From assembly GCA_034408935.1 (NCBI GenBank), contig DAOUMV010000013.1, positions 50,759-114,758 on the forward strand: a DNA stretch of 64,000 nt. Direction: 5' to 3'. Below the pieces are notes generated by a model that worked only from the letters and a program-made list of their open reading frames with translations, was not told where the DNA came from and did not search any database. A program made the position numbers and the translations under genes. Of this stretch, positions 3,173 through 9,094 are shown piece after piece; position 1 is the stretch's first letter; every line of letters begins with the position of its first letter. The stretch comes from Dehalococcoidia bacterium (GTDB taxonomy: Bacteria > Chloroflexota > Dehalococcoidia > SM23-28-2 > RBG-16-64-32).

Positions 3173-4855
3173 CTACAGCCAGCGGGAGCTGATGTCGCCG
3201 TCGATGACGATGTCCACCACCCGTGGCTCCTGCGCCGCCTGCGCTTCCCGAACTGCATCACCGATCTGGTCCGGGTGCTCGACGCGGACCCCTTCGACGC
3301 CGAAGGAGGCAGCGATGCGTGAGAAGTCCAGCGGCGGGTCTGTGAGGTCCATAGCGATAGAGCGACGGCCGGGAGCGTCTCCACCCAGGTACTCCAGCAT
3401 GTTGAGCTTGAGGATGCGATAGGACGCGTTGTTGGCGACGACCCAAGTGACCGGGACGCTGTGGTGGGCAGCCGTCCACAACGCCTGGATGGTGTACAGA
3501 GCGGCGCCGTCACCGATGACGGAGAGGACGGGCCGATCCGGGCGCGCTAGCTTGATTCCGATCGGGTTGGGCATGCCCGGGCCCAGCCCGCCGCCGGCGG
3601 CCCGGTAGTGCGTTCCCGGCTCCGACATACGCAGGTGGCGCATGACGAAGCCGCCCGTCGTTATGGACTCGTCAAACAGGACGGTGCCGGGGGCGATGGC
3701 GCCAGCCAGCTCCTTGGCCATCCGGGCGGGCGCTATGGGCACGCCGTCCCACTTGGCCTGCGCGGAGGAGTCCATAGCCTGCATCGTCTGGCGAACCATC
3801 TCCTGGATCGCCTGAGCGCGGCGCTGGGCCGCGTCACGGTAGTCGGGGGTCAGGTGCTTCTGAAGTGCGGCCAGCAAATCGGCCAAGGCCATCTTGGGAT
3901 CGGCCATGATGCCGTGCTGGACGGGCCAGTTCTTGGATATCTCCCACGGATTGAGATCGATATGGATTACGGGGGCCCGCGGTGGGAAGGGCGGCTCGGC
4001 GAAGGGGAAGAGGAGGGTGAGAATCGGGGTGCCCACGGCCAGGACGACATCAGCCCCGGAGAGCTGACTTCGTAAGGCGGGCTCCGAGATCACATTCAAC
4101 AGGCCAGCATACAGGGGATGGTCGGCGGGAAAGGGCATCTCCGCGGCGAAGGAGGAGTGCACGCGGGCGCCCAGCGTCTCTGCAAGCCGGACGAGCTCCG
4201 ATTGCGCGCCTGATGTGGCGACGCCCGCCCCGCAGACGATGACGGGCGTTTGCGCATCGATCAGAACCTGGGCGATCCGCTCGACCGCCTCCGGGTCAGG
4301 GCGGATACGGGTGTTGGTGTAGGCCGTGGGGACGGTGTCTACCTCCGCCTCTTCGTCCATGACGTTGGTGGGTATGGACAGAAAGACGGGTCCCCGCGGC
4401 GGCTCCATGGCCGCCTTGAACGCGCGACGCAGCAGCACAGGGATCTCGCCAGCGTCCTCGACATGAGCCGCCCACTTCGTCACGGGTTCCGCCATGCGCA
4501 CCAGATCGCCGAAGAGGATGGGCTCCTGAGAGCTCCCGTGCTGGGGGTGCTGGCCGGCATAGACCACCATGGGGGTCTGGGTACGGTAGGCGTTGTAGAG
4601 CATCCCCATAGCGTTGCCCAGGCCGGGGTTGATATGCAGTTGGACGAAGGAGGGCCGGTCCGTGGCCCGGGAGTAGCCGTCGGCGATGCCCACGGCCACG
4701 GACTCGTGCAGGGCCAGGATGTACTGGAGTTGGGGGTAGTCCTGTAGGGCATCGATGAACGCCTCCTCCGTGGTGCCGGGATTGCCGAAGATGTGGGTGA
4801 CGCCATCAGTCACCAACTGCTCCAAGAAAGCGTAGCGGCCGGTCAGCCTGGGCAT
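3173..4855 (-). CDS. Thiamine pyrophosphate-dependent enzyme (acetolactate synthase large subunit / benzoylformate decarboxylase family)
   Basis: TPP N-terminal, central and C-terminal domain motifs (GNPGTTEE..., GxGxxG-like, GDGA...N TPP-binding motif GDGAALYTIQALWTAAHHSVPVTWVVANN); start set at MPRLTG to avoid tRNA overlap. Confidence 0.8.
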   Translation of the reverse strand: MPRLTGRYAFLEQLVTDGVTHIFGNPGTTEEAFIDALQDYPQLQYILALHESVAVGIADGYSRATDRPSFVQLHINPGLGNAMGMLYNAYRTQTPMVVYAGQHPQHGSSQEPILFGDLVRMAEPVTKWAAHVEDAGEIPVLLRRAFKAAMEPPRGPVFLSIPTNVMDEEAEVDTVPTAYTNTRIRPDPEAVERIAQVLIDAQTPVIVCGAGVATSGAQSELVRLAETLGARVHSSFAAEMPFPADHPLYAGLLNVISEPALRSQLSGADVVLAVGTPILTLLFPFAEPPFPPRAPVIHIDLNPWEISKNWPVQHGIMADPKMALADLLAALQKHLTPDYRDAAQRRAQAIQEMVRQTMQAMDSSAQAKWDGVPIAPARMAKELAGAIAPGTVLFDESITTGGFVMRHLRMSEPGTHYRAAGGGLGPGMPNPIGIKLARPDRPVLSVIGDGAALYTIQALWTAAHHSVPVTWVVANNASYRILKLNMLEYLGGDAPGRRSIAMDLTDPPLDFSRIAASFGVEGVRVEHPDQIGDAVREAQAAQEPRVVDIVIDGDISSRWL

Positions 4856-4943
4856 GGCAGGCGCTCCTTTCGAGGGATAATGCGGGCAGACGGCAGGGCG
4901 ATAGGGCGAGGCGACAGGCGCCTCGCCCCAATTTGTGGCTGTC

Positions 4944-5020
4944 TGGTGGCGCATGCGGGATTCGAACCCGCGATCTCCGCCTTGAGAGGGCGGTGTCCTG
5001 GGCCACTAGACGAATGCGCC
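4944..5020 (-). tRNA. tRNA-Glu (anticodon CUC)
   Basis: Acceptor GGCGCAU/AUGCGCC, T-loop GGTTCGAATCC, anticodon loop CUCUCAA, CCA encoded. Confidence 0.8.
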
Positions 5021-5025
5021 GCAAC

Positions 5026-5099
5026 TGGCTGCGGGACTAGGATTCGAACCTAGACTAACTGATCCAGAGTCAGTCGTGCTACCGTTACACAATCCCGCA
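5026..5099 (-). tRNA. tRNA-Gln (anticodon CUG)
   Basis: Acceptor UGCGGGA/UCCCGCA, anticodon stem ACUGA/UCAGU with loop CUCUGGA, T-loop GGTTCGAATCC. Confidence 0.8.
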
Positions 5100-5110
5100 A
5101 CGTCACGGCG

Positions 5111-5116
5111 ATTGTA
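5111..5116 (-). promoter_or_regulatory. -10 element (TACAAT) of tRNA-Gln/Glu operon promoter
   Basis: TACAAT ~11 nt upstream of tRNA-Gln 5' end on minus strand with TTGTGT-like -35 at 17-nt spacing. Confidence 0.45.
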
Positions 5117-5164
5117 TCAAAGGGCTAGAGCGGACACAAACAGGAGGGAGGGGAACGCCCAGCG

Positions 5165-5194
5165 GTTGACAAATGTGGTGATTGTGGTATATGT
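5165..5194 (+). promoter_or_regulatory. TetR gene promoter (TTGACA -35, TATATG/TATGTA -10)
   Basis: Consensus TTGACA with 17-18 nt spacer to AT-rich -10, immediately upstream of palindromic operator. Confidence 0.55.
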
Positions 5195-5212
5195 ATAGCG
5201 AGCGCTCGCTAT
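5195..5212. promoter_or_regulatory. Perfect 18-bp palindromic operator ATAGCGAGCGCTCGCTAT
   Basis: Perfect inverted repeat overlapping TSS region 18 nt upstream of TetR start codon: classic TetR autoregulatory operator. Confidence 0.7.
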
Positions 5213-5229
5213 GACGCGCGGGGCCCAAA

Positions 5230-5898
5230 ATGCCAAAACTCAAGCCGGAAGAGGTGGAGCGCCGGCGGCAGGAGATTATTGACGCCGCCCGCTGCTGCTT
5301 CCTGCGCAACGGCTTCCACCAGACCACGACCGACGAGATCTGCCACGAGGCGGCTATCACCCCTGGCGGCCTCTACCACTACTTCGGTAGCAAGGAAGAG
5401 ATCATCAGCGCCGTCATCGAGGACACGGCGCGAGCCACCGTCGAAAACCTGAGGTCAACTGCGGAAGCGTCAGGTGACGTGCGCTCGGCAATTCAGGCTC
5501 TGGCCTCGGAGTTCTTCGAGCGAGCACGCGACCCTCAGATCGAGAACACGACCCAACTGGACCTGGAGATCTGGGCTGAGGCACTGCGAAATGAGAAGCT
5601 CGCGAAGATCACGCGGGGAGGCCGGGCGCTGCGGCGGCAGTGGCTAGAGTCCCTGATCCGCAACGGGAAATCACAGGGACCCTACACCAACCAGGTCGAC
5701 CCCAAGGGATTCGCCGATCTAATCATGGCGATCTTCGACGGGTTGCGCCTGGGCAGGTTACTGTGGCGGGACGACTTCGACCTGGAGGGTGCTCTCCAGT
5801 CGCTAGTCCTGATGTACACTGGCCGCCTCACCAACGGGACGGACATCGCCCGGGCACCGGAGGTAGCACGCTCGAGCAGAGGCCGCAGATCAGGCTAG
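5230..5898 (+). CDS. TetR/AcrR family transcriptional regulator
   Basis: N-terminal TetR HTH (RRRQEIIDAARCCFLRNGFHQTTTDEICHEAAITPGGLYHYFGSKEEI). Confidence 0.9.
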   Translation: MPKLKPEEVERRRQEIIDAARCCFLRNGFHQTTTDEICHEAAITPGGLYHYFGSKEEIISAVIEDTARATVENLRSTAEASGDVRSAIQALASEFFERARDPQIENTTQLDLEIWAEALRNEKLAKITRGGRALRRQWLESLIRNGKSQGPYTNQVDPKGFADLIMAIFDGLRLGRLLWRDDFDLEGALQSLVLMYTGRLTNGTDIARAPEVARSSRGRRSG

Positions 5899-6009
5899 CG
5901 TTTAGAAAGGGGTCGCCCGGGTCGCGCGATCCTCCCTTTGGGCCATGGCGACCCGGGCGCCAAGTCGAGGCCGCCGTGGGAACAGCCACGGCGGCCTCTG
6001 AACGTCTCT

Positions 6010-6049
6010 GGGGCTGGGGTAAGCCCCTGGGGGTGCGGCAACCCCTTTT
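6010..6049 (+). terminator. Rho-independent terminator (two tandem GC hairpins followed by TTTT)
   Basis: GGGGCT-ggggta-AGCCCC then GGGGT-gcggca-ACCCC followed by TTTTG. Confidence 0.5.
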
Positions 6050-6208
6050 GCGAGACGCCTAAGTTAGGGCCAGCCCCGGCCGCCAGGACAGCCAAGACGC
6101 GCGAGGCCAAGACAGGCGGGACCGGGGACCACTTGACGGCCGAGGCTGGAACTTGCTTACGCGTTCTCAAAATCTCTCCATCCATATCATGTAATCGGAA
6201 TCATGAGT

Positions 6209-6236
6209 ATTGTAAGGCACCAGCGGCACGAGTCAA
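6209..6236 (-). promoter_or_regulatory. Strong sigma-70-like promoter on minus strand (TTGACT-N16-TACAAT) firing toward lower coordinates
   Basis: Near-consensus hexamers with 16-nt spacer in AT-rich segment just downstream of gltX stop. Confidence 0.5.
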
Positions 6237-6264
6237 GAGGTTTGAGAGGAAAAGAGAGAATTAT

Positions 6265-6302
6265 ATAGCGAGCGCTCATAATACCGAGAAAGCGCTCGCT
6301 AT
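6265..6302. promoter_or_regulatory. Second, split copy of the TetR-type operator (ATAGCGAGCGCTC ...13 nt... AGCGCTCGCTAT)
   Basis: Both half-sites of the 5195-5212 palindrome recur with a 13-nt insertion; overlaps gltX stop codon. Confidence 0.45.
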
Positions 6303-7807
6303 GTACCTCCTGACGTCGCCTCCGTGCCCAGCCGCCGTAGGGCGGATTCAAGCCGCTCCAGGGTCCGCTCGCGGCCCAGGAGCTCCATCGTCTCGAACAG
6401 GGGCGGCGCCGCTTTCCTGCCCGTCACGGCTACGCGGATGAGGCCGAACAGGTCTCCCGTTTTCAGCGCAAGCTCCTCGGCCAGGGGGCGGATGGCGCCC
6501 TCGAGCGGCTCGTGGTCCCAAGGCTGGACATCGCTGCTGCGCCGCAACACCGTCTCCAGCGCACGGCTAGCAGACGCGGGGTCGTGGGCGAACTTCTTGC
6601 CCAGCAACATCTCTGTCTCGTAATTCAGCTCCCCCTCGACGAAGAAGAAGCCCGCCATCGCGTCGGCCTCGGTCAGCAGCTTGATGCGCTCGCGGATGAG
6701 GGGTACGACGCGCCGCAGCAAGTCGGGATCCACCTGCCTCCCCGGGGCCTGCTCCAAGAAGGGCGCTGTACGCTCCGCCAGCTCCTCTGCCGGCAGCTCT
6801 CGGATGTACACACCGTTCATCCAGGTGAGCTTGTCGAAGTTGAACACCGCCGGGTTGGCGAGGACCCGGTCCAGGGTGAAGTGGTGGACAAACGTCTTGC
6901 GGTCGATGATCTCGGTGTGGTCGTCCAGCGACCAGCCGAGGAGACCCAGGAAGTTGAACAGCGCCTCGGGCAGGAAACCGCCCTCGCGGAACTCCCGGAT
7001 GGAGGTATCGCCGTGACGCTTGGAGAGCTTGGCGCGGTCCGGGCCCAGAATCATGGGCAGGTGGGCGAAGGTGGGCGGCTCCCAGCCGAACGCCTTGTAG
7101 AGGAGGACGTGGCGGGGCGTGCTGGACAGCCACTCGTCGCCGCGCAGGACGTGGGTGATGCTCATCAGATGATCGTCGACGACGTTGGCCAGGTGGTAGA
7201 CGGGGAACCCATCCGACTTCAGCAGAACGAAGTCGTCCAGGGTATCGTTCTCGAATGCGATGTCGCCGCGGATGAGGTCATGGAAGACGGTCCGCCCGGA
7301 AAGGGGCGTCCTGAAGCGTACGACGGCAGGCAGCCCCTCTGACTCGAGCCTCCGCCGTTCGGCCTCCGGGAGGTCGCGGCAGTGGCGGTCGTACTTGGGG
7401 GGCCGCTTGCGCCGCTGGAGGTCCTTGCGCACGGTCTCCAACCGCTCCGCCGTGCAGTAGCAACGATAGGCCTGTCCGGCCTCCACGAGCTGGGCGACGT
7501 GACGCTCGTATATCTCCAGACGACGGGACTGGACGTACGGCCCCCGGTCGCCGATGTCGCGACCGGGGTCGGAGGGGTCCGGCCCTTCGTCGAAGTCCAG
7601 GCCCAGCCAGGCCAGCGACTCGAATATGGCCTGCTCGGCTCCCTCGACGTACCGTGCGCGGTCGGTGTCCTCCAGGCGGACGATGAAGGCGCCGCCCTCG
7701 TGGCGGGCGAACAGCCAGTTGAAGAGGGCGGTACGGATGTTGCCCACGTGGGGCTCGCCGGTGGGCGCTGGGGCGAAGCGGACGCGAACGAACATGGCGG
7801 GGCTCAT
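6299..7807 (-). CDS. gltX: Glutamyl-tRNA synthetase
   Basis: HIGH motif (PTGEPHVGNIRTAL), KMSKS-like KLSKRHG, class I aaRS catalytic domain; alternative start at MFVRV (7795). Confidence 0.92.
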   Translation of the reverse strand: MSPAMFVRVRFAPAPTGEPHVGNIRTALFNWLFARHEGGAFIVRLEDTDRARYVEGAEQAIFESLAWLGLDFDEGPDPSDPGRDIGDRGPYVQSRRLEIYERHVAQLVEAGQAYRCYCTAERLETVRKDLQRRKRPPKYDRHCRDLPEAERRRLESEGLPAVVRFRTPLSGRTVFHDLIRGDIAFENDTLDDFVLLKSDGFPVYHLANVVDDHLMSITHVLRGDEWLSSTPRHVLLYKAFGWEPPTFAHLPMILGPDRAKLSKRHGDTSIREFREGGFLPEALFNFLGLLGWSLDDHTEIIDRKTFVHHFTLDRVLANPAVFNFDKLTWMNGVYIRELPAEELAERTAPFLEQAPGRQVDPDLLRRVVPLIRERIKLLTEADAMAGFFFVEGELNYETEMLLGKKFAHDPASASRALETVLRRSSDVQPWDHEPLEGAIRPLAEELALKTGDLFGLIRVAVTGRKAAPPLFETMELLGRERTLERLESALRRLGTEATSGGT

Positions 7808-7895
7808 TCTAGCAAGAATGGCAGGCTGGTCACAGCGTCGGCGGGGTCAGGACGCCTTGAACCAGAGGCCAGGAGTCGCTACCTTGACTCTCGAC

Positions 7896-8186
7896 ATGCA
7901 GGGCGTGATCGAGGTCGACCCTGAGCGCATCGAGACGCTGTACGCCGGCGGCATGGAGCTGCCGTACGTACAGTTCGGGCAGGTGGAGCCGGCGTTGAAG
8001 CTCGTGTACGGCGGCGAGGACTACTGGTACGTGCGCACCCTCCCCCTGAAGGGCTACGGCGCGGTGATGGCTCGGCACATCAGCGAGCTGCAAACTGACA
8101 GCAAGAAGCCGATCCTCGCCCGCTTCCACGACCGCATCTACATCTACGCCACAGGGGTCACGCCTATCGGCGCCGCCAGGAAGTAG
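7896..8186 (+). CDS. Hypothetical protein (96 aa)
   Basis: ORF with high GC3 coding bias starting at ATG after gltX; no recognised domain. Confidence 0.45.
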   Translation: MQGVIEVDPERIETLYAGGMELPYVQFGQVEPALKLVYGGEDYWYVRTLPLKGYGAVMARHISELQTDSKKPILARFHDRIYIYATGVTPIGAARK

Positions 8187-8197
8187 CGGCCCGGGCG

Positions 8198-9094
8198 CTA
8201 GCCGCGCAGGCTGCGCAGCGCCGCTCGCAAGTCCGCTGGCAGCGGCGACTCGAACTCCACCAGGCGGCCGCTAGACGGCAGCTCGAAGGCCAGCCGCCAG
8301 GCGTGCAAGAACTGCCGCCCCACCAGCGGCGAGCGCCTCCCGTAGACGCCGTCGCCGACCACCGGGTGACCGATGGCGGCCAGATGAACACGTACCTGGT
8401 GAGTTCGCCCCGTTACCGGCTCCACCTCCAGGAGGGCGAACCGGTCCAGCGCCTCGCGTACGCGGTACTTCGTCTCCGCCTCGCGACCGCCGGCCACCAC
8501 CGCCATCTTCTTGCGGTTCCGGGGGTGTCGGCCGATGGGCGCTTCGATTGTGCCCTCAGGCGGCTGAGGCGACCCCTGCACCAGCGCAAGGTAAGTCTTG
8601 TGCACCTCTCGTTCCTTGAGCTGATGGGTCAGGCTGGCCCGGGCGCGCTCGCTCCTGGCGACGACCAACAGCCCCGAGGTGTCCCTGTCCAGACGATGGA
8701 CGATCCCCGGCCGCATCGCCTCTCGCGCCTCCGCCAACTCCGGCGCGATGGCCAGCAGGGCGTTCACCAGCGTGCCGCTGGGGTGCCCCGGCGCCGGGTG
8801 TACGGTGAGCCCCGCCGGCTTGTCCACGACGATGACGTCTTCGTCCTGGTAGATGACTGTGAGCGGGATGGGTTCCGCCGCCGGTTTCGCCTCCTCCACG
8901 GGGGGCAGGGTCGCCTCGACGCGCGCGCCGGAGACGAGGTTGTGGGAGGGGCGCTCCCGCCTGCCGTCCACTGTCACCAGCCCCTCGTCGATGAGGCGAC
9001 GAGCGTGGCTGCGGGACAGGCCGTCCACGCGGCGGGCCAGGAAGACGTCCAGCCTCTCGCCCGGCCTATCCGCCGCCAGTTCCAGCGTCTTCAT
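8198..9094 (-). CDS. rluD: RluA-family 23S rRNA pseudouridine synthase (RluD-like) with S4 domain
   Basis: S4 RNA-binding N-terminus, catalytic HRLDRDTSGLLVVAR motif. Confidence 0.88.
   Translation of the reverse strand: MKTLELAADRPGERLDVFLARRVDGLSRSHARRLIDEGLVTVDGRRERPSHNLVSGARVEATLPPVEEAKPAAEPIPLTVIYQDEDVIVVDKPAGLTVHPAPGHPSGTLVNALLAIAPELAEAREAMRPGIVHRLDRDTSGLLVVARSERARASLTHQLKEREVHKTYLALVQGSPQPPEGTIEAPIGRHPRNRKKMAVVAGGREAETKYRVREALDRFALLEVEPVTGRTHQVRVHLAAIGHPVVGDGVYGRRSPLVGRQFLHAWRLAFELPSSGRLVEFESPLPADLRAALRSLRG

Follow-up and report, generated by a model that had tools for sequence, protein, structure and literature searches.

A TetR-family regulator, a candidate structured RNA and a tandem operator array in Dehalococcoidia

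We analyzed a 64,000-nt stretch of DNA from a Dehalococcoidia bacterium (the window; GenBank assembly GCA_034408935.1, contig DAOUMV010000013.1, positions 50,759 to 114,758 of the forward strand; genome ~65% G+C), in which tetR, a gene for a TetR-family regulator, is separated from gltX, the gene for glutamyl-tRNA synthetase, by ~400 nt without an annotated gene. Comparison with related genomes points to a conserved module of three parts: tetR itself, a predicted structured RNA gene on the minus strand, and an array of TetR operator units upstream of the RNA promoter. We consider it likely that these parts operate as one module in which the array controls the RNA promoter. A fuller proposal, which we advance tentatively and at somewhat less than an even chance, is that the RNA is the output of TetR and represents a new structured RNA class restricted to Dehalococcoidia-like Chloroflexota, expressed from a sigma-70-type stable-RNA promoter on which a dedicated ligand-sensing TetR acts through a phased array of half-consensus sites, either as an activator or as a repressor directed against the alpha subunit of RNA polymerase.

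Predicted RNA gene and its structure

For comparison we used 38 loci from species-representative genomes, gathered with an alignment of TetR homologues and covering three clades. The stretch from the tetR stop codon to the operator array, 328-417 nt in length, is alignable on the minus strand across all clades. With an nhmmer profile of this stretch we found a single copy in the window (6205-5891) and a single copy per locus in 31 loci, and a covariance model of the RNA core recovered the same copies with E-values of 1e-6 to 1e-14. Based on these two models and on a fold z-score of -4.96 for the window RNA relative to shuffles, we place a structured non-coding RNA gene of ~300 nt at 5905..6203 on the minus strand, with both ends inferred.

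Read from its promoter, the window RNA begins with a variable 5′ domain, followed by a conserved core (6001..6059, minus strand) in which stem S1, formed by GGCGUCUC (6059-6052) and GAGACGUU (6008-6001), surrounds two short hairpins of the GGGG/CCCC type. A near-invariant loop, GCCGCA (6039-6034), caps the first of them, and helices 1-4 of the conserved core are 80-91% paired, with double changes. Next comes hairpin S4 (5967..5998, minus strand), an inverted repeat with a 13-bp stem of GAGGCCGCCGUGG and CCACGGCGGCCUC (5998-5986 with 5979-5967), whose loop is CUGUUC in the window and UGGGCUC in most relatives; 97% of its alignment cells are paired, and three basal pairs change from G-C to A-U in 6-12 sequences. 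The gene would end in a terminator-like hairpin (5914..5959, minus strand), a 12-nt inverted repeat with 100% complementary arms (5948-5959 and 5914-5925) followed by ACCCCUUUCU (5913-5904). This terminal hairpin is kept at the same position in all loci, with compensatory changes.

Across the alignment, standard pairs occupy 90.3% of the paired cells, compared with 43-59% when the partners are slid by 1-3 columns, and double-sided changes occur in 15 of 26 pairs, compared with 5-8 in the slid controls. The covariation score is 0.232 (≤0.098 in the controls), and none of 500 shuffles reached the observed pairing and covariation values. The alignment used for these counts was fitted to the covariance model, so they lean toward the structure; covariation of S4 and of the terminator had already emerged from independent MAFFT/RNAalifold runs. 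Four clade 3 loci (L021, L022, L028 and L033) carry an extra insert of ~25 nt between the second small hairpin and S4, which holds a second copy of the self-complementary UAGCUA of the neighbouring loop. This duplication suggests a lineage-specific kissing or pseudoknot contact.

The strand was called from the conserved −35/−10 pair at the far end, the U-rich 3′ tail of the minus strand and G-U pairs that moderately outnumber A-C in the stems; we assign the RNA to the minus strand mainly because of the promoter and the tail. The inferred 3′ end (~5904-5906) lies 6-8 nt from the tetR stop codon (5896-5898) and is reached before the coding sequence, so the RNA would not be antisense to the tetR coding sequence. 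Overlap with the untranslated 3′ tail of the tetR transcript, or read-through, is possible, and the shared terminal hairpin could terminate both convergent transcripts. A preliminary description of this DNA had a promoter-like site at 6236-6209 driving an antisense transcript into the 3′ region of tetR, with a plus-strand terminator at 6010-6049 between them. The promoter is borne out by its conservation, described below. The antisense course is replaced by a transcript with its own hairpin and U-rich end (5959-5904) ahead of the tetR stop codon, and the supposed terminator, absent from our terminator scan, is the complement of two conserved minus-strand RNA hairpins.

The same description held that no convincing open reading frame (ORF) is driven by the promoter and that the product may be a regulatory RNA under TetR control. 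Both suggestions agree with our analysis, the second in essence. By its substitution pattern the gene is without a protein-coding signature: in close pairs of sequences, the three codon positions of the longest ORF have changed about equally often (11/11/11, 17/16/14, 9/16/12, 14/13/12 and others), indels are mostly of 1-2 nt and mostly not multiples of three, and the reading frame through the conserved core in clade 1 differs from that in clades 2 and 3. The 96-amino-acid ORF of the window (5895-6185) matched no Pfam family.

The RNA appears to be undescribed. At gathering thresholds, Rfam 15 (4227 families) reported only tRNAs in the window, five loci from other clades likewise gave only tRNAs, and a permissive search of 5100-6400 gave as its best match P17, on the opposite strand and at 22.4 bits against a gathering score of 45. 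Identity with a known RNA family was therefore set aside for the window and the five loci. By eye we found no hallmark motifs of signal recognition particle RNA, RNase P RNA, transfer-messenger RNA (tmRNA) or 6S RNA, ARAGORN detected no tmRNA, and full-text literature searches yielded no report of a TetR-linked RNA in Dehalococcoidia or Chloroflexi. We also considered pairing of the RNA with the leader of the tetR mRNA and rejected it: duplex energies were no better than those of shuffled sequences (z −1.8 to +2.1) and the positions were inconsistent.

The tetR operator and the array at the RNA promoter

The product of tetR (5230-5898, plus strand; 222 amino acids; assigned by Pfam) combines an N-terminal helix-turn-helix domain (PF00440, TetR_N; E-value 9.1e-16, 57.8 bits with a cut-off of 24) with a C-terminal ligand-binding and dimerisation domain (PF13977, TetR_C_6; E-value 1e-10, 42.2 bits with a cut-off of 27). 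Among proteins of solved structure, its best relatives are UidR and TetR proteins of a generic kind, and no specific NCBIfam equivalog matched it at or above its cut-off. We found 562 homologues, the named ones in Dehalococcoidia metagenome-assembled genomes (MAGs), and the protein is 100% identical to one database entry from NCBI/Logan assemblies; an identical contig with tetR is also found in SRR14802572.

Upstream of tetR, a promoter read from the sequence (5166..5193, plus strand) has a −35 hexamer TTGACA (5166-5171), a 16-nt spacer and a −10 hexamer TATATG (5188-5193). Our consensus promoter scan omitted it, as the −10 hexamer lacks T at position 6; TTGACA and a TATAAT-like hexamer are found upstream of every TetR orthologue. 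Right after the −10 hexamer, and 18 nt before the tetR ATG (5230), lies the perfect 18-bp palindrome ATAGCGAGCGCTCGCTAT (5195-5212), which forms the body of a 20-nt operator, TATAGCGAGCGCTCGCTATG (5194..5213, both strands), that covers the expected tetR transcription start. The operator motif (A/T)TA(G/C)CGAGCGCTCGCT(A/T)T is present at the tetR promoter of 33 related loci, and in all loci with upstream DNA present it is flanked by a TTGACA/TATAAT-type promoter on one side and the tetR start codon on the other, at a distance from the −10 hexamer that varies with the clade (~1 to ~12 nt). As the operator is kept in orthologues with 44-87% protein identity to the query, the autoregulatory role already proposed for this palindrome gains support; the layout is that of classical negative autoregulation and fits a simple block of the transcription start.

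A second site, TATAGCGAGCGCTC at 6264-6277 together with AGCGCTCGCTATG at 6291-6303, adjoins the 3′ end of gltX. Allowing ≤3 mismatches, the 18-mer has 2 matches in the 64 kb (0.05 expected; 0 of 100 shuffles reach 2), and the exact 12-mer ATAGCGAGCGCT occurs in the window only at the two sites. The preliminary description took the copy at 6265-6302 for a single operator whose half-sites are interrupted by 13 nt and straddle the gltX stop codon. The recurrence stands, and the stop codon (6299-6301, minus strand) is indeed inside, in the distal unit; the split site does not stand. Each supposed half holds a whole AGCGCT core, so the site consists of two adjacent 20-nt units rather than one interrupted operator. 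The arrays of relatives consist of 2, 3 or 4 operator-like 20-nt units whose AGCGCT cores recur at exact 20-nt intervals, and it is the minimal two-unit form of the window that gives the appearance of one operator interrupted by 13 nt.

In 28 loci, as in the window, the tetR start precedes the array by ~970-1090 nt. Among pairs of AGCGCT ≤40 nt apart in the 317 kb of loci and window, 51 are spaced by 20 nt, 23 by 40 nt and 6 by all other spacings together. Read toward the minus-strand promoter, the promoter-proximal unit of the window, TATTATGAGCGCTCGCTATA (6264..6283, minus strand; core 6271-6276), corresponds to a consensus TATaatGAGCGCTCGCTatA from 29 loci and has its consensus half-site on the promoter side. 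The distal unit, CATAGCGAGCGCTTTCTCGG (6284..6303, minus strand; core 6291-6296), belongs with the distal and internal units of relatives, which number one to three per array and share the consensus natAcCGAGCGCTtnCTCng (n = 56 units). Each unit thus consists of the core and one consensus half-site, and the good half-sites are the outermost ones of the array. The second site had been offered as a possible regulated target of TetR; conservation of the array in relatives argues for this.

Two other origins of the site were rejected. The arrangement ATAGCG[AGCGCTC]-13 nt-[AGCGCTC]GCTAT resembles a 13-nt insertion with a 7-bp target duplication, but in relatives 2-4 units are regularly repeated every 20 nt. 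Likewise, tetR is no mobile cassette between palindromes: synteny of tetR with the RNA gene and the array is maintained across three clades whose sequences have diverged. In one locus (L009, ~2340-2455 of the RBG_16_64_32 contig) ~100 N lie exactly over the array and the RNA promoter, presumably from masking, with the RNA body and tetR intact.

The RNA gene promoter (6209..6236, minus strand) has the −35 hexamer TTGACT (6236-6231), a 16-nt spacer and the −10 hexamer TACAAT (6214-6209). It agrees with the consensus at 10 of 12 positions, is the best promoter-like site in 4800-8000, and has TTGAC at the same place in all 29 loci (29/29). Between array and −35 runs an A/T-rich stretch, TATAAUUCUCUCUUUUCCUCUCAAACCUC (6237..6263, minus strand), that by eye resembles an UP element; ATAAT beside the array and CAAAC or CAAAA immediately upstream of TTGAC are conserved in it. 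In 27 of the 29 loci, 37 nt separate the centre of the proximal core from the first T of TTGAC; the separation is 38 nt in one locus and 48 nt in another (L025), the last being about one helical turn longer. The array therefore keeps a fixed helical phase upstream of −35 (37-nt offset, 20-nt period), as expected of class I-like activator sites such as those of LuxR-type TetR activators. With a start near 6203, the unit centres of the window fall at ~−71 and ~−91, and larger arrays add ~−111 and ~−131, roughly on one helix face. On the far side of the array, the neighbouring gene is ~33 to 186 nt away. Because the spacing is fixed toward the RNA promoter while the other flank varies, we take the array to be tied to the minus-strand RNA promoter.

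Possible mode of control and competing explanations

We propose that TetR would repress its own gene through the operator over the transcription start, and that several TetR dimers would fill the array cooperatively, each unit giving a core and one consensus half-site. TetR bound to the array would set the activity of the RNA promoter, and a small-molecule ligand would release it. A contact- or phase-dependent action would be favoured, in which TetR either activates in class I fashion or hinders the alpha subunit of RNA polymerase at the UP-like stretch; activation and repression at the RNA promoter seem about equally likely to us. Plain occlusion of the core promoter seems less likely, because the sites lie upstream of −35, their spacing is strict and an insertion of one helical turn is tolerated.

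Several points weigh against this proposal. The RNA, the binding of TetR and the control it would exert are all deduced from conservation, and most TetR proteins are pure repressors. Since the single array units carry one consensus half-site each, binding by a symmetric TetR dimer is not assured. In clade 3 the −10 hexamer of the RNA promoter departs further from the consensus, and the counts of G-U versus A-C in the stems (47 vs 36) favour the minus strand weakly. Some of the same MAGs also contain tetR paralogues without the RNA that have the same ATAGCGAGCGCTCGCTAT operator on their own promoters; given such coexisting paralogues, cross-talk, with another TetR acting on the array, is possible.

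Among the other explanations of the array, one takes it to be nothing more than the intrinsic terminator hairpin of gltX, with its likeness to the operator of no regulatory meaning for the minus-strand promoter. On the gltX strand of the window the two units do form a 13-bp hairpin at the transcript end (~−20 to −25 kcal/mol, z −5.1, 12-14-nt loop), which begins at the stop codon and has a mixed A/U/C tail, AUAAUUCUCUCUUUUCC, after it. Yet the array stands at the same 37 nt from the RNA promoter where its neighbour is a divergent sortase gene and there is nothing to terminate, it is the sequence (invariant AGCGCT, 20-nt period) rather than the pairing that is conserved, arrays of 3-4 units form no one simple hairpin, and the terminator scan reported none at the array. 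We regard this explanation as very unlikely for the array as a whole, while the hairpin may add a terminator or roadblock function for gltX, a secondary role that is possible in the clades with gltX. A somewhat less improbable, though still unlikely, explanation has the array regulate the right-hand gene (sortase in clade 3, read-through of gltX in clades 1 and 2) beside a constitutive RNA promoter. In clade 3 the array does lie between two divergent units, the usual spot for a shared TetR operator. The variable distance on that side tells against it, as do the change of the gene itself between loci, a likely sortase promoter ~60-80 nt past the array in L026 (by eye) and the convergence of the right-hand gene on the array in the window; only the spacing toward the RNA promoter is fixed.

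The RNA gene has competitors of its own. The conserved 370-nt stretch always follows tetR, its hairpins fold on both strands, and G-U versus A-C counts separate the strands weakly, so that it could be read on the plus strand, with tetR mRNA having there a structured 3′ untranslated region or terminator region. The minus-strand −35/−10 pair at the far end of the stretch in all 29 loci and the U-rich tail, which follows the last hairpin on that strand but not on the plus strand, make this quite improbable; a T-run after a small plus-strand hairpin is seen in clade 1 only. It is more doubtful still that the promoter serves a small protein, namely the 96-amino-acid ORF of the window or the 44-70-amino-acid ORFs of its relatives. 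A frame of 44-98 codons is open on the RNA strand in 28 of 29 aligned sequences, and in clades 2 and 3 many such frames end at the same conserved stop, but ORFs of this length are common at 65% G+C, and these combine equal substitution at codon positions, frame-shifting indels between close relatives and a clade-dependent core frame with the lack of a Pfam family and of a consistent start codon or ribosome-binding site.

Genomic neighbourhood, paralogues and related systems

The preliminary description suggested searching for further copies of the palindrome to find the real efflux or enzyme target of TetR. No further operator is present in the 64-kb window, and no conserved protein-coding neighbour, be it a pump or an enzyme gene, was found among the loci; in the window, tetR is flanked by tRNAs and the RNA gene. 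The right flank of the array is taken by a converging gltX in clades 1 and 2 and by a divergent sortase gene in clade 3, and single loci carry a gene for a luciferase-like monooxygenase or a major facilitator superfamily transporter beside the RNA-linked array. The conserved target of this TetR thus appears, from the loci compared, to be the RNA and not a pump or enzyme. We also scanned metagenome contigs with an RNA-only pattern, which proved too G+C-rich (1 real among the 80 matches listed); the sole true match among those listed also carries tetR, the array and gltX.

The RNA-less paralogues arose inside the RNA-linked clade, and within single MAGs we find the pairs L012 with L019, L013 with L014 and L010 with L031. 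Regions with RNA-less paralogues are those of L012 (4001-6157), L010 (876-4519), L014 and L032. One such paralogue is followed by a Gln-synt_C gene, another is divergent from an amino-acid ABC transporter, and a tRNA-Ser(TGA) adjoins the tetR of L012 and L014. The Gln-synt_C and ABC transporter genes, along with the gltX and tRNA-Gln/Glu genes flanking the window locus, hinted at an AmtR-like nitrogen regulator. We set this idea aside, as the other paralogue contexts (GGDEF-HD, ORFs without Pfam families) and the monooxygenase and transporter genes beside the RNA-linked array are unrelated and the match to AmtR is weak and at the level of the helix-turn-helix.

On the left of tetR in the window are tRNA-Gln(CTG) (5026-5099, minus strand) and tRNA-Glu(CTC) (4944-5020, minus strand). 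By eye, a separate minus-strand promoter at ~5146-5118 (TTGTGT-17-TACAAT, TG upstream) serves these tRNAs. Beyond them lies a gene for a thiamine-pyrophosphate enzyme (3173-4954, minus strand), whose longest ORF overruns tRNA-Glu and whose true start is probably an ATG near 4856 (MPRLTGRY...). The same tRNA pair stands directly upstream of tetR in the window (4944-5099, minus strand) and in 10 related loci from all three clades (L001, L007, L008, L015, L018, L020, L022, L027, L029 and L034), with tRNA-Gln only in L018, where the locus ends; gltX is often on the opposite side. This arrangement places tetR and the RNA gene within an old gltX / tRNA-Gln / tRNA-Glu neighbourhood.

On the right, gltX itself (6299-7807, minus strand; Pfam tRNA-synt_1c and Anticodon_2) is outside the conserved module. 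A promoter-like sequence, GTGACC-16-TAGAAT with an upstream TG (7806-7833, minus strand), ends on the annotated gltX start codon, which suggests that the gltX mRNA is leaderless or has a very short leader, or that the true start of gltX is further downstream. Between gltX and the gene for a pseudouridine synthase (8198-9094, minus strand), the public assembly calls a 100-amino-acid gene (~7884-8186, plus strand), which matched no Pfam family.

The candidate RNA resembles orphan structured RNAs found by comparative genomics (for example the collections in PMC2864571 and PMC5737381) in being intergenic and lineage-restricted, with covarying stems, invariant loops and its own promoter and terminator, and differs from them in having an adjacent dedicated transcription factor and operator array. 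A TetR-type protein at small-RNA promoters has a precedent in Vibrio, where LuxR, bound at upstream sites, activates the promoters of the small-RNA genes qrr2-4 (PMC2680268), acts both as activator and as repressor (PMC2628434), and where LuxT represses qrr1 (PMC8043402). What our locus, as read from its sequence, would share with Vibrio LuxR/HapR is a TetR-type protein well upstream of a small-RNA promoter that is at the same time a repressor of its own gene. The qrr promoters require sigma-54 and LuxO, whereas the promoter here is sigma-70-like with an UP-like stretch; Qrr RNAs are ~100 nt and Hfq-dependent, whereas the RNA here is ~300 nt and highly structured; and LuxR has one site per qrr gene, in place of a phased array. 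Between LuxR and the TetR of the window, no sequence relationship was shown beyond the TetR fold.

Operators that take more than one dimer are familiar in the TetR family, as with TetR on tetO1/tetO2, QacR on IR1 and EthR on its 55-bp operator. Common to these systems and to ours are a regulator with helix-turn-helix and ligand-binding domains, a palindromic operator on its own promoter and a second, multi-site region. Our multi-site target departs from theirs in lying wholly upstream of −35 (~−62 to −102 in the window) rather than over the core promoter, in its fixed 20-nt phase with one consensus half-site per unit, and in having an RNA gene as its target instead of a divergent pump or enzyme gene. 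Its geometry recalls class I activation, in which CAP is centred near −61.5, −71.5, −82.5 or −92.5: the site centres are near −72 and −92, the spacing is strict, and one lineage has an insertion of about one helical turn. TetR belongs to a different protein family from CAP, and a repressor acting against the alpha subunit would fit the geometry just as well.

A TetR regulator is almost always taken to repress, locally, a pump or enzyme gene next to its own. The only conserved target here besides tetR is a predicted gene for a structured RNA, whose promoter has phased sites upstream. If our proposal is right, the locus would yield a new family of structured RNAs in a large bacterial group most of whose members are uncultured and would offer a natural case of a TetR protein at class I-like positions on a sigma-70-type promoter, and the ligand of this TetR would indicate when the RNA is needed.

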